A stretch of 35,945 bases of DNA from a virus, in IMG/VR virus record IMGVR_UViG_3300030330_006157, positions 1-35,945 of that record; one strand, given 5' to 3'. This document shows, piece after piece, positions 3,268 through 34,408 of this stretch. The notes under the pieces were generated by a model. That model worked only from the letters and a program-made list of their open reading frames with translations. It did not search any database and was not told the DNA's origin. The position numbers and the translations under genes are program-made. The first letter of the stretch is position 1. The number at the start of each line of letters is the position of its first letter.

Positions 3268-3453
3268 ATGACTAATAAAAAAATTACATTTACGACTAAA
3301 GAGGCTCTAGAATATTTAAAAGAAAATAATTTTAGCTATTCTCGAAACTCTTTACTACTTCGCAACAAAAAAATGAATGGTATTTTATGCAAAAAAGTTA
3401 CCGAAAGGAAGTTTTTATGGTATAAAGAGGAGCTAGACAAATTATTACCTTAA
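3268..3453 (+). CDS. Excisionase / AlpA / MerR-like HTH DNA-binding protein
   Basis: 61 aa. ITFTTKEALEYLKENNFSYSRNSLLLRN...KFLWYKEELDKLL fits the excisionase-family HTH pattern (T.eA.eyL..s..tl...... ...w.....l..ll). Confidence 0.45.
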   Translation: MTNKKITFTTKEALEYLKENNFSYSRNSLLLRNKKMNGILCKKVTERKFLWYKEELDKLLP

Positions 3454-3455
3454 CT

Positions 3456-3484
3456 AAAAAAGGGGGGGACTATGAACCCCCCCA
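3456..3484 (-). terminator. Rho-independent terminator (best on the minus strand; the hairpin also closes the plus-strand early block)
   Basis: G7 (3462-3468) and C7 (3477-3483) form a stem with an 8-nt loop. On the minus strand the stem is followed by T6 (plus-strand A-run 3456-3461). A second hairpin aaaatctt/aagatttt lies at about 3492-3510. Confidence 0.6.
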
Positions 3485-3713
3485 GAAAAGAAAAATCTTT
3501 TTTAAGATTTTAGGTTTAATTTACCATATACAATTATAATATTAACTAATATTAATTACAATTCAATTATGCACCTTTATTTTTAATTGGTGACACCCCC
3601 CCTCGCACCCCTTAAACACACAACCCACTTCTAGCAGCATTACATATTAGTAAAAATCAACAAGCTAGGTAACATTCAAATAACAAGCCCCTGCCCTTTC
3701 TAAATCTTACTTG
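3456..3713 (-). ncRNA. Candidate orphan non-coding transcript, about 250 nt (a possible shorter form of about 85 nt from an internal promoter)
   Basis: It is bounded by a promoter-like TTGACT-N18-TACAAT (3750..3721) and the G7/C7+T6 terminator. No ORF of 60 aa or more is present; the only ATG ORF seen is 24 aa (MLLEVGCVFKGCEGGVSPIKNKGA). Confidence 0.3.
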
Positions 3714-3720
3714 AGGCTTT

Positions 3721-3750
3721 ATTGTAATTTACAACTAACAAGCCAGTCAA
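3721..3750 (-). promoter_or_regulatory. Sigma70-like promoter on the minus strand inside the ORF-free region
   Basis: The reverse complement reads TTGACT (3750..3745), an 18-nt spacer, then TACAAT (3726..3721). Confidence 0.4.
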
Positions 3751-3754
3751 CAAT

Positions 3755-3787
3755 CAAATAACAAACAAATAACAAACAAATAACAAC
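3755..3787. repeat. Tandem 11-bp repeat CAAATAACAAA x3
   Basis: Copies at 3755-3765, 3766-3776 and 3777-3787 (the last ends in c). An AGAAGATA x2.5 repeat follows at about 3801-3820. Confidence 0.85.
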
Positions 3788-3903
3788 AACTAAAGAAATA
3801 AAGAAGATAAGAAGATAAGAATATATATATGTTGCTATTTTTTATTGGGTTTAAAATATTTTTTCAAACCTGATTTTTTAAATAGGTACATTTTCGCTAA
3901 TAA

Positions 3904-3932
3904 CAAAAACTATCAAAAACTATCAAAAACTG
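3904..3932. repeat. Tandem 10-bp repeat CAAAAACTAT x3 (phased A5 tracts)
   Basis: Copies at 3904-3913, 3914-3923 and 3924-3932. Confidence 0.85.
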
Positions 3933-3963
3933 GTTAGCGTCAAATTAATTGTTGATAAATAAA

Positions 3964-3997
3964 AAAGGTAATTACCTTTTTCGATAGGGTAATTACC
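3964..3997. promoter_or_regulatory. Two copies of the palindrome GGTAATTACC, 21 bp apart (operator-like)
   Basis: A perfect 16-bp palindrome aaaggtaattaccttt at 3964-3979. A 10-bp core ggtaattacc at 3988-3997. A third half-site ttacctt lies near 4013-4019. Confidence 0.55.
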
Positions 3998-4149
3998 TTT
4001 TTTATTTTCCTATTACCTTGTTTTTTAAAAGTCTACATCATAACTAGAGATAATACATCATTTTTAAAAACTTCTTAGAGCCAGTCTAGTAAACACTATA
4101 GATCGTTTATCATTGCTAGCAACAATAAATCATAACTAGCTATAATAAA

Positions 4150-4354
4150 CTATGCCAAACTATTCCAAAACTGCACCAAAACTGCACCAAAACTGCACCA
4201 CCTACTCTGTAAAAACTCTGTGGAAACTCTGTAAAAACTATTAGCAAACCCTTGTAATTAAAGGGTTTAGACTTCTAAGACTCTGTAAAAACTCTGTGGA
4301 AACTCTGCACCAAAACTGCACCAAAACTGCACCAAACTATGCCAAAACTATGCC
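4150..4354. repeat. Mirror-ordered iteron array: three families of about 11-bp direct repeats flanking a central hairpin
   Basis: A = CTATGCCAAA(A): 4150, 4160 (variant), 4337, 4348. B = CTGCACCAAAA: 4171, 4182, 4193, 4305, 4316, 4327. C = ACTCTGT(AAAA/GGAA): 4204, 4215, 4226, 4280, 4291, 4302 (fused to B). The order is AABBBCCC-core-CC(C)BBBAA, all in one orientation. The core hairpin aaaccctt/aagggttt is at 4246-4268. Confidence 0.9.
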
Positions 4355-4357
4355 GCC

Positions 4358-4399
4358 TGTGTTATACTTGGTATAAGTGCGTATACTCAGTATAACACA
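4358..4399. promoter_or_regulatory. 42-bp imperfect inverted repeat containing two TATAC-N3-GTATA palindromes
   Basis: tgtgttatacttggtata-agtgcg-tatactcagtataacaca has 18-bp arms with 2 mismatches. The sub-palindromes are ttatac-ttg-gtataa (4362-4376) and tatac-tca-gtata (4382-4394). Confidence 0.7.
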
Positions 4400-4426
4400 T
4401 TAACATTAACTTTTTTCACTTTTTAA

Positions 4427-4455
4427 TTGACTTGAAACTTTTTTGTTATTAAGAT
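4427..4455 (+). promoter_or_regulatory. Sigma70-like promoter upstream of the recombinase gene
   Basis: TTGACT (4427-4432), 17-bp spacer, TAAGAT (4450-4455). Confidence 0.4.
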
Positions 4456-4460
4456 AGTTT

Positions 4461-4489
4461 TTGTTCCGCTTCTGATAATAGCAGAACAA
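4461..4489. promoter_or_regulatory. Candidate tyrosine-recombinase core site (11-7-11 inverted arms)
   Basis: ttgttccgctt-ctgataa-tagcagaacaa; the arms match at 9 of 11 positions. The arm sequences recur in swapped, inverted order at 4560-4566 (attctgc) and 4586-4594 (aagcggaac). Confidence 0.4.
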
Positions 4490-4615
4490 CTATAAAACTA
4501 CTTAAAGCTTTACTAGTAGTGCCTTAAAGCTGTATTTAGGTAATAATATTAATAAATCTATTCTGCTTTTTTAAGAATATAAAGAAAGCGGAACTACTAA
4601 AAACAATTATAAATT

Positions 4616-5215
4616 ATGACTTTTACACCCTGGAATAAAGGAAAATGCGTTGGACAAAAAACAAAATTTACTAAAAGACAAGTAAGTTCGTTGAAAGATA
4701 TACTTAAAAATAAAAATAAGCAATTTGATTTAGTTTTATTTTCTCTTGGAGTTGATACAATGTTGCGAGCTTCAGATTTATTAAATTTAAAAGTAAGCGA
4801 TGTAATGGCTTATGATAGAACAATAAAAAATATATTTGATTTGAAACAACAAAAAACTAAAATGAATCACAAGGTTCAACTATCCGACTCTACTATTCAT
4901 GAACTAATAATATATACTCATAATAAAAACCCTCAAGAATATTTATTTAAGTCTTCAAGAAAAGATGCACCTATCACGAGAGAATATTACGCAAAAAAAG
5001 TAAAATCATGGTGCGAGTTGTTGGGATTAGATCCAAAAAATTATTCTACACACTCTTTGCGACGAACTAGAGCAAGTTATATATACGAATCAACAAGAGA
5101 TCCAGAATTAGTACGTCAACTGTTAGGTCAAAAACATATTACTGCCACATCAGCTTATTTAAGTATAGATAAAAATCGGGCAATTGAGTTAGGCTCAAAC
5201 TTTATGATGGATTAA
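4616..5215 (+). CDS. Short tyrosine recombinase (catalytic domain only; FimB/FimE-sized)
   Basis: 199 aa. Motifs seen are DTMLRASDLLNLKVSDV (first Arg box), HSLRRTRASYIY (HxxR) and LLGQKHITATSAYL (His...Tyr). Only about 45 aa precede the first Arg, so there is no room for an arm-binding domain. Confidence 0.8.
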   Translation: MTFTPWNKGKCVGQKTKFTKRQVSSLKDILKNKNKQFDLVLFSLGVDTMLRASDLLNLKVSDVMAYDRTIKNIFDLKQQKTKMNHKVQLSDSTIHELIIYTHNKNPQEYLFKSSRKDAPITREYYAKKVKSWCELLGLDPKNYSTHSLRRTRASYIYESTRDPELVRQLLGQKHITATSAYLSIDKNRAIELGSNFMMD

Positions 5216-5368: not shown

Positions 5369-5989
5369 TCAATGAATTTTTTTTAATTGATCTGCTTTTA
5401 AGTGCAGAACATCAACTTTATAGTACTTTTGAATAATCTCTAAAGCTTTAATTATATTCTTTTTTAAGGTTAATCGATGACTCTTTGTTAATTGATTAAT
5501 TTTATTTAATGAAAATTCTGATTCTAGGACATAACTAATTAATTTTTCATAATTACATTTTTGAGTAGATAACATCCTTAACATCTTTTTTATTTGCAGT
5601 ATATTGCTTGATGCTCTTAATTGCTTGGTTGAAAGAGACTTTTCGTGTCGCTTACCGCCCTTTTCGTTGATACTTGAGCCGTCCATAATAACTTTGCTAG
5701 AGAAAGGATCCCGGTGCATTAACTCATAATCGAGTTGGTAACGCTGGCCCGCTGCATACAGACCTAGATCTATGTCATCCTTAGCATAATATCTTTGTAG
5801 GGGTGATTGTATTACATATGAAATTTGGTTGTTCTTCATTAAGACTGGCTTAACCGATAAGCCTAATTTTTTTAATTGTTCGATCTGCTTAAGGTTATGA
5901 TTGGCGAGCAATGCTGCATTTAACTTACCTTCCAAAATTTTATTTGACTCTTTCAATATTTCGTAGGATGTTGCTGGTTTTTTCGTCAT
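5369..5989 (-). CDS. Hypothetical protein, second gene of the leftward switch operon
   Basis: 206-aa ORF with an ATGA start/stop overlap to the upstream gene. The segment SPLQRYYAKDDIDLGLYAAGQRYQLDYE loosely recalls a family I remember, without certainty, as DUF6456 from alphaproteobacteria. Confidence 0.55.
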   Translation of the reverse strand: MTKKPATSYEILKESNKILEGKLNAALLANHNLKQIEQLKKLGLSVKPVLMKNNQISYVIQSPLQRYYAKDDIDLGLYAAGQRYQLDYELMHRDPFSSKVIMDGSSINEKGGKRHEKSLSTKQLRASSNILQIKKMLRMLSTQKCNYEKLISYVLESEFSLNKINQLTKSHRLTLKKNIIKALEIIQKYYKVDVLHLKADQLKKIH

Positions 5990-8225: not shown

Positions 8226-8257
8226 TTTTTAACTATTTTTTGAACCATAGTAGATAT

Positions 8258-8296
8258 AGATTAAGAGAGAGATATAGATTAAGATAAAGATTAAGA
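8258..8296. repeat. Three copies of AGATTAAGA (spacing 18 and 12 bp)
   Basis: Copies at 8258-8266, 8276-8284 and 8288-8296, with GATATAGA also duplicated. They lie upstream of the replication genes. Confidence 0.75.
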
Positions 8297-8638
8297 TAAA
8301 AATAATGATAGAATTTAAAATTTGGATTTTGGAATCGTTGACAAATAATATTTCAATGATTTTGTTTTTGTTAGTTTCAATAGTTCTCATTTGGATTATT
8401 GCTAAATCGATGTAATTACCTATTATATTGTGTAAAAAATTGTTGCATTTTGAACATTTTAATGTCAAAATTGCAATTATTAATTTATTTTTATTTTAGT
8501 TGAATTAAGATTCATGCTAATATTAATAAATTATTTTTTATGTTATTTGTTATAACGTTGGCGTTATTGGCGGCTCTTCTGATTTTGATTTTGTTTTAGA
8601 AAGTCACCATGTATATTATGTAAACTAATATTGGAGAT

Positions 8639-9094
8639 ATGTTTCATAAAATTTTAAGCTTGAAAAAAGATTTTTTTTGTAGTATCGTACTAGATACCAT
8701 GAAAAAACCTAATTACACTCACACTATTGATCCATTGAAAGTGCCTTGCCCCGTGTGCAACTCTCCCTATGAGATCAACTTTAATTCAATTTCTAATGAC
8801 TGGATATCTCTAGAATCCTTACAAGAAATTGATGACAAAATTGATTTAGCAATTTTAAACTTAAAGAAAGAGCGCTTAAAGGTTCGATTTGCTCATATTT
8901 TAAGAACTTCACCTAATGCCCATGCCCTAACCGCTTATATACTGGCTTTTGATTTTAGTGGTATCAAATTTGAGCAAGGACGCATAGTTTACTATTACGA
9001 TGATACTTTCCCTATTAAACTTTTAAAAACTACTTTTAAGCATCTCAGAATCCATTTAAAACATAAAAAATTTGCTGGAGGTTGTAATGAGTAA
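8639..9094 (+). CDS. Hypothetical protein (the true start may be the internal ATG at 8699)
   Basis: 151-aa ORF with a single CPVC motif. Its stop overlaps the next gene's start (ATGAGTAA). Confidence 0.5.
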   Translation: MFHKILSLKKDFFCSIVLDTMKKPNYTHTIDPLKVPCPVCNSPYEINFNSISNDWISLESLQEIDDKIDLAILNLKKERLKVRFAHILRTSPNAHALTAYILAFDFSGIKFEQGRIVYYYDDTFPIKLLKTTFKHLRIHLKHKKFAGGCNE

Positions 9095-10160
9095 TATTTT
9101 AAATTTACTTTCCTTTGATGGATTTATTTCTGTCAACAAAACCTTGATTCGTAAACTAGGACTAGAAGAAGCTTGTGTTGTTGGTTTTTTAGCAACCATG
9201 CACGAATATCATGCTAGTAAAGATTTTGATGGCTGGTTCTATGTAAAATATGATCTCACCGACCAAGATGAAGATGTTGATAAGAATCGCAGAAACACGG
9301 CAAAATATCAATTAGGAATGAGTAAAGACAAGTTTATCAAAATTACAAAAAAACTTGAAAAAATAAATATAATTTTTACAAAAAAGAAGGGTGTCCCAGC
9401 ATTAAAGTTTTACAAGTTTGATGCTGATGTTATTTGTCAATTATTACTTGATGAAAATGCTATCAAGTCAGTAAATAAAGGTACTCATTCAGCTTTCGCA
9501 AAACACGAAAGCTTGCTTTCGCAAAACACAACATCAAGCTGTAGGAAAACACGAATGCTATATAAAGAGAAAATAAATAAAAAAGAAAGTATCTCTCTTC
9601 TGGCAAATATTTCTCCTCAAGATGTAACTTTAGATTTGATAAAAAAAGAAGCTAAGAGAAGAGAAAAGGATATTAAAAGTTTTATTAAAGATGAGTTAGG
9701 AAAAAAAATATCTGGTAATGAGTACAAAGAGCTATTTGAAAATTTTTGTAACAATTACTGGGAATGGATTCAGCGAAAAGAAATTAAATCATATACTGCT
9801 ACTTTTGAGAAATTTATATCTGAGGAAAATAGCTACAAAAGTAATGAGCCTGTTCAGCAAGGTTTCGTGTCGCCAAAGTCAAAAAAACCCCCTCCTCCAC
9901 TTTTAAGTTTAGGATTGCCCGACACAAGCACGGATTTTATTAAAGACTCTCAAGAGTGGCAAAACTTACTTAAAGAAAAGTTTGATGAAGATGTCTACGA
10001 TAAGTGGATTAAGTGCCTAATACCTCATCGCAAAGAAGGAGAGAAAGTAATTTTTTCTGTAGAAACAAAATTTGTAAGAGATTGGGTTATTCGTCAATAT
10101 CAAACAAAAATACAGGAATTTTTAGGTTTTGATATAGTAATTCTTTCCACTGAACCATGA
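9087..10160 (+). CDS. Replication initiation/organiser protein with a DnaA domain I-like C-terminus
   Basis: The N-terminus LNLLSFDGFISVNKTLIRKLGLEEACVVGFLATMHEY looks like a winged-helix replication protein. The C-terminus WQNLLKEKFDEDVYDKWIKCLIPHRKEGEKVIFSVETKFVRDWVIRQYQTKIQEFL parallels the E. coli DnaA N-terminal pattern W..L.......f..WI..L......l.l.....F..DWV...Y...I. I take the ATG at 9087 as the start rather than the TTG at 9072. Confidence 0.55.
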   Translation: MSNILNLLSFDGFISVNKTLIRKLGLEEACVVGFLATMHEYHASKDFDGWFYVKYDLTDQDEDVDKNRRNTAKYQLGMSKDKFIKITKKLEKINIIFTKKKGVPALKFYKFDADVICQLLLDENAIKSVNKGTHSAFAKHESLLSQNTTSSCRKTRMLYKEKINKKESISLLANISPQDVTLDLIKKEAKRREKDIKSFIKDELGKKISGNEYKELFENFCNNYWEWIQRKEIKSYTATFEKFISEENSYKSNEPVQQGFVSPKSKKPPPPLLSLGLPDTSTDFIKDSQEWQNLLKEKFDEDVYDKWIKCLIPHRKEGEKVIFSVETKFVRDWVIRQYQTKIQEFLGFDIVILSTEP

Positions 10161-10243: not shown

Positions 10244-10284
10244 GCGGATCGCTTGACTTTAATGACTTTTTTTAAGCGATCCGC
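10244..10284. promoter_or_regulatory. 11-bp-arm inverted repeat with a 19-nt loop
   Basis: gcggatcgctt (10244-10254) and aagcgatccgc (10274-10284). There is no adjacent T-run, so it is more likely a binding site or RNA structure than a terminator. Confidence 0.4.
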
Positions 10285-10616: not shown

Positions 10617-11249
10617 ATGGCACATATTATCTCTATTATTGGTCAAAAAGGAGGTATTGGAAAAACTACTATAGCTTGGAATCTATTTATTACCCTACTT
10701 TCTCAAGGATACAAAGTTAAATTGGTTGATTGTGATAATAATCAATTTTCTACTTATGAAATCGCTCAAATTAGAAAAAATAAATTAGGTGGGGATTTGG
10801 TTGATGTTGAGTGCATGCCTGCCAATGAAGCTAGATACGTTTTAAGAGAATGTGATAAAAGTTATGATGTAATTATTTTTGAGTGTGGGGGTAGAATAGA
10901 TGATGAATTAAAAATGGCAATTTCTTATGGAGATAAAATTATTATGCCACTTAAACCATCTATTTTGGAAATTCAAACTATTAAGAATGTCGAAAAGGTA
11001 ATTGATAGGATTCCTAATTTTAATGCTGATTGCAAGATATTGCCCAATATGGTTTCCACGCATCATTTAAATAACGATCTTGATCAAATGAAAAATTTAA
11101 ATCCAAGATATTTCAAGTTTATGAAATCATTCATTTCTCATAGATCTATATATTCTTCTTCACTAACCTTTGGGCGTTCAATTTTTGAAATGTCTCCCTT
11201 AGACAATAAAGCGAATAATGAATTTAATAATTTCCTGTTGGAATTATAA
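10617..11249 (+). CDS. parA: ParA/Soj-family partition ATPase (small, type Ib-like)
   Basis: 210 aa. The N-terminus IISIIGQKGGIGKTTIAWNL carries the deviant Walker A motif KGGxGKT. There is no N-terminal HTH extension. Confidence 0.85.
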   Translation: MAHIISIIGQKGGIGKTTIAWNLFITLLSQGYKVKLVDCDNNQFSTYEIAQIRKNKLGGDLVDVECMPANEARYVLRECDKSYDVIIFECGGRIDDELKMAISYGDKIIMPLKPSILEIQTIKNVEKVIDRIPNFNADCKILPNMVSTHHLNNDLDQMKNLNPRYFKFMKSFISHRSIYSSSLTFGRSIFEMSPLDNKANNEFNNFLLEL

Positions 11250-32178: not shown

Positions 32179-34408
32179 TTTCAAATTGTTTTTCTCGTTC
32201 TAACTCCATATCTCTTATTGTTTTTTCTTTTTCCAATAAGAAGTCCCTTGTAGCTTGACCTTGTTGCAATGCAAAATCACGCTTTGCATTATTTTCATTT
32301 TTAGCAAGATCAGCGGCTATTTTTTCTCTATCTACTTGGTTTTTGTCTTCTTTAACCGCCACCTCTCTATCTTTAAGCTGCATTTCAGCCATTTGCATTT
32401 GCTGTGCTTGCTCTTGAGCTTGTTGTTGCGCTATTTCAGCTTGACTCGGCTGGTTGTCGTCTTCTTCGTCAAGTATAATGTTTTCAATCTCTTCAATAGC
32501 TCCTAGTTGTTTTAATTGATAGGCTAGTAGTGCTTTATATGCTTTTTGCGATATACCACCAGCTTGAACAATAGGAAATAATTTGTTGGCAGTATCAGTC
32601 ATGGTGTTGACTATCTCCATTGCTTCGGCTTGCCTTCTTTCTTTGTCGATCTGAATGGTTGAATCAGTCTCAATATCTATTCTATATTCACGTAGTGAAT
32701 CGTTTTTTAATATCTCATCAATTTCAGGCACTATTGCCGCATCAATCGCCTTATTTTCCTTAATCATTTTTTCAAAAGGTCGCAATTGGTCGGCTATTGC
32801 TTGATTTACTTGCTGATTGACTTGCTCTTGTGCATCGTCTGGCAAGTCTTGCATTGGCACTGTATTGGCAATATTATTAACTATAGTGGTTTGTATTTCT
32901 TGGCTAATAGCTTGCAGATCTATTATTTCCATGCCTGAAATATAAGCTAGTTCTTCCACAGTCCAGTTAGCAGAATATAGTTGAGCTGTTAGCCTGACTA
33001 GATCACGGCAAAAGTGTTGTACTTCTTTTTGCTGTGGTTGTATTCTCGATATTGCAAAGTTACCTTTGATTCTTTGAGCGGTCGCCGTTTCTTCTGCATT
33101 GGTAGAGCCTCTAACTAGATCAGAAACGCCTGATATTTGCTCTACAATAGCTATAGCTTGCTGTCTTTGTTGATATAAAGCCACTAAAGTGTCAACAATA
33201 GGCTGTATCTCTTTAAAATAGATCTTGTCGGATATTCTCTCACCTGTTGCAATGTTTTTAACTGGCGAAAATACGCCGTCATCATTACTAAGGAAATTTT
33301 GTATATCTTTTTGACTAATTACCGCATCATAAAGCCCAGCTACTCGCACTTGCTCTATAAGTGCGCTAATTCTTTGCGATAAAAAGCTAATTTCTTGAGC
33401 TTGAGCCTTATACTGCGTATAATCCGGAATAGGAATAATGCTATTAATACCTGACTCAATCCCTAATGGCTTAGGAATACACCAGAAATCATCGAAGCCG
33501 TAAAAGTCTGACGTTTCTTTAATTACTTTATTAGCTACAGCACTTTCAGTGTAGAATATTATTTTTCTTTCTGTTTTATCCCAAATTTCCCATACTTCGC
33601 AAGTTCTAAAAAGACCATTTTTAACAGCTGCGTTGGTATCTGATGAATCATTATAATTACCTACCTCTTTTGTTTTATTAAATGTTACATTCTTAGCCTT
33701 TCTTGCGCCAAATTTAGCTTTAAACTCATCTTTTGTAAACTCATGTCGAAAAGCGATCCAGTCAACATCTTCCCACTGTCTGGCTGGCTGTATTAGCAGA
33801 TCGTCCCACGGCACGTAATCAAGAGTAACTTTTTTTTCGCCTGGCATTTCCATCTTGCTTTTTTCAATAACAACTTCACCAGTATCAGTCATTATTTCTT
33901 GTTCTTGCTCTTCTTTGATTATCTCTTGCTCAAAACCCACTCGAACAACGCCTTTTTTAACTATTAAGAAATCATCACGGGCTTTTGCAATCTTTGTTAC
34001 CGCATCTTCTTTGTCAAGAGTGCATGATACAGCACGCTCTAATAATGTAGATATAGTGCCACTTACATTGTCTTGCTGGATATTTCTTCTTCTGATCTGC
34101 GGTACTGGTAAATTGGAAAAGATAAGCGGTCTAAGTGTTTCAATATTGGAGTATAGGACATTAAATCGATCTTGTAGCCCTGCGTAAGTGCTGGTACTCT
34201 CATCATATTTAGCAGTAACCACATTTGCCCTAGCTTGGTCAAGTGTTTTGTTCTGAAAAGTGCGCACATACTCATTAGCCATGCACACATATTCATTTTG
34301 ATACTGCTTAGCAAGTTTTATTTCTTCCTGCCATCTAATATATTTACCCTCTTCGCTACCGTATTGCTCTTTTAATTCAGCAATTTCTGTTATTTGTTCT
34401 GTTTCCAA
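32171..34408 (-). CDS. Portal protein with a long C-terminal helical extension
   Basis: 745 aa, positioned between terL and the scaffold gene. The C-terminal 120 aa or so are Q/E/K-rich and helical, resembling a P22-type barrel. The start is TTG directly after an in-frame TAA. Confidence 0.75.
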   Translation of the reverse strand: METEQITEIAELKEQYGSEEGKYIRWQEEIKLAKQYQNEYVCMANEYVRTFQNKTLDQARANVVTAKYDESTSTYAGLQDRFNVLYSNIETLRPLIFSNLPVPQIRRRNIQQDNVSGTISTLLERAVSCTLDKEDAVTKIAKARDDFLIVKKGVVRVGFEQEIIKEEQEQEIMTDTGEVVIEKSKMEMPGEKKVTLDYVPWDDLLIQPARQWEDVDWIAFRHEFTKDEFKAKFGARKAKNVTFNKTKEVGNYNDSSDTNAAVKNGLFRTCEVWEIWDKTERKIIFYTESAVANKVIKETSDFYGFDDFWCIPKPLGIESGINSIIPIPDYTQYKAQAQEISFLSQRISALIEQVRVAGLYDAVISQKDIQNFLSNDDGVFSPVKNIATGERISDKIYFKEIQPIVDTLVALYQQRQQAIAIVEQISGVSDLVRGSTNAEETATAQRIKGNFAISRIQPQQKEVQHFCRDLVRLTAQLYSANWTVEELAYISGMEIIDLQAISQEIQTTIVNNIANTVPMQDLPDDAQEQVNQQVNQAIADQLRPFEKMIKENKAIDAAIVPEIDEILKNDSLREYRIDIETDSTIQIDKERRQAEAMEIVNTMTDTANKLFPIVQAGGISQKAYKALLAYQLKQLGAIEEIENIILDEEDDNQPSQAEIAQQQAQEQAQQMQMAEMQLKDREVAVKEDKNQVDREKIAADLAKNENNAKRDFALQQGQATRDFLLEKEKTIRDMELEREKQFENA

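Follow-up and report, generated by a model that had tools for sequence, protein, structure and literature searches.

What is the function of the array of short direct repeats at 4150–4354 of the viral record IMGVR_UViG_3300030330_006157, a sequence of 35,945 nucleotides that was analysed at its full length and is called the window here? A sequence-only reading of this DNA had offered the array as a candidate partition centromere, replication origin or recombination-arm scaffold. With a probability of about 0.4, we regard it as an optional, conserved protein-binding scaffold that would act locally, and neither as a partition centromere nor as a replication origin. The local scaffold is favoured because the array is optional and does not track the partition, replication or recombinase genes; centromere and origin are disfavoured because the array neither co-varies with the proteins concerned nor is retained in close relatives.

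The array consists of 15 clear and two degenerate 11-bp units, arranged head-to-tail on one strand in the order A a B B B C c C, a hairpin with an 8-bp stem, and C c (ACT) B B B A A (unit sequences and positions are given in Table 1). Direct reading, Tandem Repeats Finder, repeat finding and a purpose-written unit parser agreed on this layout; Tandem Repeats Finder reports period 11 at 4165–4200, 4204–4239, 4280–4307, 4305–4336, and 4334–4354 (matches 84–100%), and the parser gives unit-to-unit spacings of 10–13 bp, mostly 11. The count of sixteen to seventeen units in the sequence-only reading holds as 15 clear plus two degenerate ones, and its three families, mirror order, shared orientation, and hairpin at 4246–4268 were recovered by all readings. 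Its further statement that every site lies on one face of the helix is only approximately right, as sites 11 bp apart gradually rotate around a helix of about 10.5 bp per turn and the block junctions shift the register by 1–3 bp. Chance can hardly account for the array: both arms contain exact copies of a 30-nt B block and of a 28-nt C block, its 11-bp periodicity peak is the strongest of the whole window, and the A, B, and C 11-mers have only chance-level two-mismatch matches elsewhere in these 35.9 kb. Folding of the region as single-stranded DNA yields the hairpin as its centroid structure. Predicted curvature is high (end-to-end to contour ratio 0.685 vs. 0.906 ± 0.06 for the genome; rank 24 of 3,574 windows), as computed with a self-coded wedge model.

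Mirror order by itself, in a single genome, would arise with odds of only about 1 in 6, and its significance derives from the relatives. Combined with a single orientation, it cannot be produced by simple duplication or inversion; an origin by nested target-site duplication was considered and rejected, no element sequence lying between the blocks. At the nucleotide level the region has no match among INPHARED phages or PLSDB plasmids, and an exact search of IMG/VR for the B block found nothing. When IMG/VR was scanned for five AAACT motifs in 11-bp phase, 101 loci were returned, nearly all simple single-family tandem repeats; no mirror-ordered array was seen among those listed and inspected, and the scan was judged uninformative. 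No description was found in the literature of three unit families in mirror order around a palindrome, with 15–17 units and apparently compensated symmetric change; the mechanistic class, phased direct-repeat operators, is already known.

Related marine contigs (L numbers) were gathered via the recombinase (Int) and neighbouring proteins; scans for close relatives with Int in IMG/VR and GTDB genomes returned nothing. In two Logan assemblies (L282 and L283; the contig behind L282 measures 34 kb), the array reads A A a B B C c C, an identical core, and C c B B A A A. Total length is unchanged between window and L282 (217 bp from the first A to the palindrome that follows the array), and each arm shows one B unit turned into A, the two places being mirror-symmetric. 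The centre, from C through the hairpin to C, is identical at 101 of 101 positions, against 10–12% divergence in the flanks and in a nearby gene for a 206-aa protein; under neutrality such identity has a probability of about 8e-6, and it is this difference that argues for conservation. The unit order is likewise kept in L286, where a variant unit k (ACTCTGTAGAA) replaces c in both arms and the core carries two single-nucleotide polymorphisms; L002 has one such polymorphism, in an A unit (G4341A).

The array is dispensable. At least five close-relative contigs lack it altogether: the whole module 3585–4405 is absent from L090, whose Int is 96% identical, and from L294–296, and L279 is without window 3883–4380. 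Loss in close relatives, which the sequence-only reading had named as telling against its own proposal, is thus found, at least at the level of natural contigs; an essential cis site should be retained in close relatives that are functional. The array is also independent of the modules to which it had been tentatively assigned. Between window and L282, identity is 97% for a 61-aa protein, 96% for the 206-aa protein, 92% for a 99-aa protein, and 86% for a 253-aa protein, as against 43% for ParA and 42% for Int; the ParB-like, initiator, and 151-aa proteins are without detectable similarity. In L284–286 the 206-aa protein is 87–91% identical and the 99-aa putative repressor only 52–54%; the 61-aa protein is 89–95% identical where found (L285, L286). 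Conservation alongside the array is accordingly seen for the 61-aa and 206-aa proteins and not for ParA, Int, the initiator, or the ParB-like protein. By these comparisons the array is an optional add-on that follows none of the partition, replication, and recombinase genes, and an iteron array of a phage-plasmid should not be called a centromere or origin unless co-variation with the par and rep modules has been checked.

In the proposed scaffold, helically phased head-to-tail 11-bp operators would lie on intrinsically curved DNA, and one or more small DNA-binding proteins would load cooperatively on both sides of the central palindrome, so that some 200 bp would fold into a complex that is compact and either U-shaped or wrapped. 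The complex would act rightward, on the double-palindrome promoter-like element at 4358–4399 and on the recombinase cassette (Site I at 4461), as an operator array of the ParR type or of the type used by recombination directionality factors (RDFs; Cox, Apl), tuning the expression and/or the recombination geometry of the int cassette. Consistent with such a local target, the array always stands beside the 4358–4399 palindrome and ends 107 bp from Site I. Assignment to the phased direct-repeat operators is preferred because the array does not behave as a centromere or origin and its repeats are phased on predicted bent DNA.

Among the closest known systems, two belong to this class. Repeats in direct orientation at a spacing of one helical turn characterise filaments formed cooperatively by monomers or dimers, as exemplified by Apl of phage 186, which binds five repeats at att and seven between pR and pL cooperatively and with bending of the DNA; RDF proteins have dual roles in recombination and transcription, and their sites lie by the integrase site and/or face-to-face promoters (PMC7498355). 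Head-to-tail repeats at 10–11-bp spacing, one helical turn apart, are shared by the present array with those of lambda Xis (X1-X1.5-X2), P2 Cox, and 186 Apl. The known RDF arrays differ in having three to seven sites of one degenerate family, no mirror order, and no central hairpin; moreover, no winged-helix RDF was recognised in the window, and the recombinase here has no arm-binding domain. ParR of plasmid R1 binds parC, with two sets of five 11-bp iterons, as one dimer per iteron in a U-shaped complex (PMC2241845). The resemblance to parC pointed out in the sequence-only reading is genuine: both have 11-bp direct iterons in two clusters, with some 40 bp of core between them, on curved DNA, and a folded U-shape would be expected for both. 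Unlike parC, the array has three families in mirror order (8 + 7) instead of a single family (5 + 5); the R1 core bears the par promoter and lies directly upstream of parMR, whereas no core promoter is predicted here, the neighbouring gene encodes a recombinase, and the par genes are Walker-type, 6.3 kb away, and do not co-vary with the array.

A more elaborate version of the scaffold would be a nested zipper, in which the three families represent three specificities or affinity classes, the DNA makes a U-turn at the palindrome, and dimers bridge like units antiparallel across the arms; we consider it quite unlikely. Two-fold-symmetric dimers would then pair each left unit with a right unit of the same type, which would account for mirrored order without mirrored orientation, for the joint shift of the A/B boundary, and for the change from c to k in both arms of L286. 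If true, the phage would possess an ordered nucleoprotein switch of several layers, an architecture not described before; a nested scaffold of several specificities would add ordered arm-to-arm assembly to the repertoire of ParR/parC and Xis/Cox/Apl.

Several observations weigh against the local scaffold. No array-binding protein was identified, the 61-aa protein being without recognisable Xis, ribbon-helix-helix (RHH), or helix-turn-helix (HTH) signature and the AlphaFold2 model of the 206-aa protein unusable (pLDDT, the model's confidence score, 41); both proteins also occur in array-less relatives (L279, L090, L294). Promoter-like matches are no commoner than in shuffled sequence (13 vs. 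10.3 ± 3.2). The perfect identity of the centre could stem from recent mosaic exchange and not from purifying selection. Copy numbers in L286 are asymmetric, with C5 on the left and C1 on the right, and arrays are truncated in L284/285 (hairpin lost) and L287 (A units only), so that the mirror layout, if these forms are real, is not strictly required. The junction of the hairpin loss in L284/285 lies inside the 28-bp C repeat, and these truncated forms, which were not relied on, could be assembly collapses, given short repeats, low coverage, and an N gap within the L286 array. Finally, a 9–13-bp periodic array was found at none of about 165 loci of more distant recombinase homologues.

How do the alternatives compare? 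As a partition centromere of the parC or parH kind, the array would have both iteron clusters coated by a centromere-binding protein and a plasmid prophage segregated by ParA. Besides the parC-like layout (8 + 7 units around 43 bp), the genome offers a 210-aa ParA (NF041546, 4.8e-32; Walker-type; at 10617) followed by a 97-aa protein, within a par operon of 73-aa, ParA, and 97-aa genes; the 6.3 kb between array and operon would recall phage-plasmids such as N15, some of which have centromere sites far from their par genes. A centromere should, however, co-vary with its cognate binding protein, as it does in types Ib and II, and the L282 array is the same although ParA is 43% identical and the small protein downstream has no similarity. 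Upstream of the par operon none of the A, B, and C motifs occurs; the operon is preceded by repeats of its own, which differ between relatives. The array is missing both from close relatives and from the examined 16.6 kb of L196 (ParA 60% identical). In a type II centromere the core holds the par promoter and the array lies directly upstream of parM-parR; no ParM was detected here, and no sigma-70-like promoter is predicted in the core, 4237–4279. In parH, ACTC boxes about 8 bp apart adjoin parF-parG and double as operator. The likeness to these ParG boxes suggested in the sequence-only reading stands as far as ACTC is present in the C units, and fails in the spacing, 11 bp, and in the remoteness from parA. 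The unchanged L282 array beside another ParA and ParB-like protein, together with the distance from the par operon, contradicts the centromere proposal, which we regard as highly improbable. Even less credit is due to an origin or to copy-control iterons (oriP- or incA-like) bound by the initiator. Iteron-like direct repeats on A-rich curved DNA would suit such a site, TGTGGAAAC in the c units differs from a DnaA box at two positions by our own reading, and an initiator gene (9072–10160) is nearby, as the sequence-only reading remarked. That gene, which has a DnaA_N-like C-terminus, already appears to hold a lambda-O-type origin: three 19-bp iterons at about 9495–9553, unlike the array units, are followed by an A-rich tract (window ~9495–9600), and different 15–19-bp iterons with an A-rich tract occupy the same internal position in L196 (6868–6950) and L282 (8161–8246). 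These internal iterons co-vary with the initiator, in an arrangement seen in three of three relatives examined, and make a better origin candidate than the array. In an iteron origin the iterons would co-vary with the encoded initiator and adjoin an AT-rich unwinding region; the L282 initiator has been replaced by one without detectable similarity and the array is unchanged. Pfam, PHROGs, and NCBIfam revealed no second Rep-type gene, and close relatives do without the array, so that the origin proposal is likewise contradicted.

Of the three original proposals, the recombination arm survives, in weakened form: the array does lie 107 bp from a core-type site, but a conserved pair of sites (Sites I and II, Table 1) stands outside it and relatives manage without it. 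In the strict version the array would be a dedicated accessory arm, comparable to cer/psi or to the P arm of attP, that only shapes the Site I synapse, as a topological filter or for directionality. This we hold possible but unlikely. The array occupies about 205 bp on one side of Site I, as in Xer plasmid sites, where some 180–200 bp adjoin a dif-like core, here too beside an Xer-like recombinase on a plasmid-type replicon; the accessory-protein sites of cer are moreover symmetric (PepA-ArgR-PepA). Catalytic-domain-only recombinases such as FimB/E depend on architectural factors, homologues of the present one abound on plasmids and occur in the phiCD38-2 group, and the array-bearing L284/285 have an AlpA-type gene adjoining int. 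On the other hand, known accessory sequences are not tandem 11-bp iterons and are bound by host PepA, ArgR, or ArcA, and the array is separated from the core-type site by a further palindrome. The site of TnpI in Tn4430 combines an inverted-repeat core with adjacent direct-repeat accessory motifs that impose resolution selectivity; only two such motifs exist there, similar to the core half-sites and contacted by the recombinase itself, whereas the A, B, and C units are dissimilar to the half-sites of Sites I and II. The int cassette and Sites I/II persist without the array in L090, despite the 96% identical Int, and in L294–296; L294 has a separate Arm-DNA-bind_3 open reading frame (ORF) and still no array; none of the roughly 165 distant family members has an array nearby; and the array is kept across Ints only 42–51% identical. 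Largely non-functional, fast-evolving slippage repeats in a hypervariable spacer, with mirror order as an inherited accident, would fit the varying copy numbers, the truncated or absent arrays, and the rearrangement junctions in short repeats; slippage automatically preserves block order once a mirror order exists, and simple single-family 11-bp arrays are common in viral contigs. Against such neutral DNA stand the single-orientation mirror order that simple duplication or inversion cannot yield, the 101/101 centre against 10–12% background divergence, the length-neutral compensated change between window and L282, unit sequences identical across lineages, and the absence of a mirror layout from the phased-AAACT arrays inspected among the IMG/VR matches listed; we rate it as doubtful. 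More doubtful still is a non-coding RNA of which the array would form the body, such as a sponge that takes up proteins by its reiterated motifs. This would explain why all units lie on one strand, in a module with no credible ORF of at least 20 aa; a minus-strand terminator implies leftward transcription over the gap, extended −10-like elements are present in the palindrome, TATAAT (4141–4146) stands just before the first unit, and the left part of the module has CA-rich repeats (AACAAACAAAT ×3.5). No Rfam family matches, however, no extended structure is predicted beyond two hairpins (z = −1.9), the promoters are consensus matches of which the left TATAAT is missing in L282, and no candidate RNA-binding partner is known.

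The local scaffold remains the preferred reading, and the palindrome directly after the array would be its nearest target. This imperfect 18-6-18 palindrome may be resolved into a pair of 13-bp palindromes, TATAC-N3-GTATA, between TGTGT and ACACA, and its outer arms can be taken for two extended −10 elements (TGnTATACT) that face each other. No other inverted repeat of this kind occurs in the window, which has one further single TATAC-N3-GTATA match, at 33409. The palindrome is present beside every array variant; L282 and L286 carry its central 20 bp in inverted orientation as compared with the window and L284 (spacer CGCACT instead of AGTGCG), and its outer 11-bp arms are unchanged in L282 (2669–2710) and L286 (~4268–4309). 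The element is probably an operator or promoter that travels with the array. A promoter-like match on the plus strand, ATGCCA-18-TATACT, spans 4339–4368, and another lies on the minus strand at 4129–4158; the outermost A unit at either end of the array is thus overlapped by promoter-like hexamers, consensus matches of this kind occurring at chance frequency. The 18-6-18 geometry would also fit a tyrosine-recombinase core, with the array as a cer-like accessory arm, but this was dropped as the main reading because the family-typical GCTT..AAGC sites, Sites I and II, were found outside the module. A search for second copies of the palindrome half-sites, as expected for an invertible or excisable segment, gave only chance-level matches.

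The recombinase is a 199-aa, Xer-like enzyme with XerA/XerD as its closest NCBIfam and PDB matches. Homologues are present in 1,894 PLSDB plasmids and in the phiCD38-2 group of Clostridioides difficile phages; phiCD38-2 is kept as a plasmid prophage. This family of about 200-aa recombinases has a pair of palindromes upstream of the gene, one with a short spacer at about −125 to −165 and one with a long spacer at about −47 to −69, which typically share a GCTT..AAGC core, the arm sequences varying between lineages; the pair was seen in L007, L008, L010, L012, L199, L200, L201, and others. It probably comprises the recombinase core site and an autoregulatory or accessory site. In the window the corresponding Site I, conserved in L090, L282, L286, and L294, and Site II lie between the array and int, the start codon of which is 262 bp from the array end; as both lie in the part that the array-less L090 conserves, the int cassette is self-contained and the array lies outside it. 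This two-site signature of minimal Xer-like recombinases, which are widespread on plasmids, and the origins inside initiator genes are by-products that can be tested directly. A split integrase was noted in some relatives (Table 1): a 145-aa Arm-DNA-bind_3 (PF13356) ORF directly precedes an ORF of 211–212 aa for the catalytic domain and is itself preceded by a 148-aa ORF.

Two conserved neighbours were examined as candidate binding proteins. The 61-aa protein is identical on 14 contigs, diverged ones included, and 88–97% identical in array-bearing relatives; its AlphaFold2 model (pLDDT 67) has a beta-alpha...beta-hairpin-alpha topology. No Xis, HTH, or RHH match was obtained with Pfam (E ≤ 5), phmmer against PDB, or Foldseek, and BLASTP against the AlpA of a relative (the gene occurs in L284/285 and not in the window) gave no support either; the by-eye reading as Xis/HTH_17-like was abandoned on these four grounds. 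The excisionase-like protein and the two RHH-like proteins of the sequence-only reading likewise received no support from Pfam, PDB sequence search, or Foldseek. The gene for the 206-aa protein is the second of a leftward operon that starts, by our own sequence reading, with a putative repressor; the protein is 87–96% identical in L282 and L284–286. Seven of 25 remote homologues weakly match DUF6456 (best E-value 1.5e-5), an annotation also carried by GafA homologues (PMC9638019). The protein, a member of a small family, may be a GafA-like (DUF6456) transcription factor and could activate phage transcription in a way characteristic of elements from Alphaproteobacteria. GafA is the activator of the Rhodobacter gene transfer agent.

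Table 1 Features of the array, its surroundings, and corresponding loci in relatives. Positions refer to the window unless a contig is named; a dot marks features without strand.
Feature	Position	Strand	Description
Left arm	4150..4236	+	A a B B B C c C; eight 10–12-bp units
Unit A	start 4150	+	CTATGCC
Unit a	start 4160	+	CTATTCC
Units B	starts 4171, 4182, 4193		CTGCACC; 4193 unit ending CCT
Units C	starts 4204, 4226		ACTCTGTAAAA
Unit c	start 4215		ACTCTGTGGAA
Core	4237..4279	.	degenerate unit, hairpin, degenerate unit; 43 bp
Degenerate unit	start 4237		ACTATTAGCAA
Hairpin	4246–4268		AAACCCTT-GTAATTA-AAGGGTTT; palindromic, 8-bp stem
Degenerate unit	start 4269		AGACTTCTAAG
Right arm	4280..4354	+	C c (ACT) B B B A A; seven units, oriented as left arm
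Right-arm C	start 4280		
Right-arm c	start 4291		
Right-arm B units	starts 4305, 4316, 4327		preceded by ACT
Right-arm A units	starts 4337, 4348		4348 unit truncated
Imperfect palindrome, 18-6-18	4358..4399	.	TGTGTTATACTtgGTATA-AGTGCG-TATACtcAGTATAACACA; directly after array
Site I	4461..4489	.	palindrome TTGTTCCGCT-TCTGATAAT-AGCAGAACAA; short spacer, core-type, 155 bp upstream of int start
Site II	4561..4594	.	long-spacer palindrome TTCTGCTTT..AAAGCGGAA; 55 bp upstream of int start
Tyrosine recombinase gene (int)	4616..5215	+	199 aa, catalytic domain only, Xer-like; PF00589 8.6e-22; phrog_216
61-aa protein gene	3268..3453	+	directly upstream of non-coding gap
206-aa protein gene	5369..5989	−	second gene of leftward operon
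Swappable non-coding module	3585..4405	.	carries the array
Split integrase	L289 4273–5351; L290; L294 3141–4216		
Inserted 164–202-aa ORF	L090 27–557; L279 417–911; L282 1607–2161; L294 1859–2467		
Hexamers AGATWA	8252–8310		
Hexamers ATAAAY	L196 5554–5612		
Hexamers ATAGAG/AGATAA	L282 7093–7156		

The window is a marine phage-type genome of about 36 kb, and the same sequence has been assembled independently from Tara Oceans samples (e.g. L001, 35,973 bp, identical over the region). The ParA, initiator, and recombinase genes named in the sequence-only reading are all confirmed. The portal protein is a distant relative of portals of podoviruses infecting Alphaproteobacteria; this relationship and a G+C content of 27–42% suggest a low-GC alphaproteobacterial host. 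The group to which the genome belongs comprises abundant uncultured marine phages that resemble plasmid prophages.

The array sits in a 1.16-kb gap (3454–4615) between small early genes and int. No credible ORF of at least 20 aa is present in this gap, and tRNA and Rfam searches for a tRNA fragment of attP or a known non-coding RNA returned nothing. At its left edge is a strong intrinsic terminator on the minus strand (3483–3462; G7-N8-C7, then T6), from which it follows that leftward transcription crosses the gap. At the site of window 3584/3585, relatives carry an ORF of 164–202 aa without family match, which the window lacks. CA-rich repeats, AACAAACAAAT ×3.5 and then AAGAAGAT ×3, occupy 3749–3825 in the left part of the module; the CA-rich part is kept in all array-bearing relatives and in L279. 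Window 3914–4152 is an extra insert relative to L282. Within it, at 3957–4007, the self-complementary decamer GGTAATTACC occurs twice, 21 bp apart, in a perfect inverted repeat with 20-nt arms between A and T runs, which looks like a bidirectional terminator; this structure is absent from L282 and L284–288 and hence belongs to the extra insert of about 240 bp.

Two further repeats were noted near the partition genes. A perfect 11-bp inverted repeat, GCGGATCGCTT-N19-AAGCGATCCGC (10244–10284), overlaps a TTGACT promoter-like site upstream of the 73-aa/ParA/97-aa operon; its L282 equivalent is an unrelated 23-bp repeat in three copies (8731–8798). Both are candidate par operator or centromere sites. 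About ten contiguous hexamers follow just after the 253-aa gene, upstream of the replication/partition cluster, in all three relatives (Table 1). The hexamer array of the window was tried as the actual centromere and found no better supported than the mirror array, because it lies in a block conserved between window and L282 while the par genes differ. Far to the left, the rightward early gene cluster starts with a 226-aa protein (1315–1995) that matches the ArdA antirestriction family at E = 0.002, below the Pfam cut-off.

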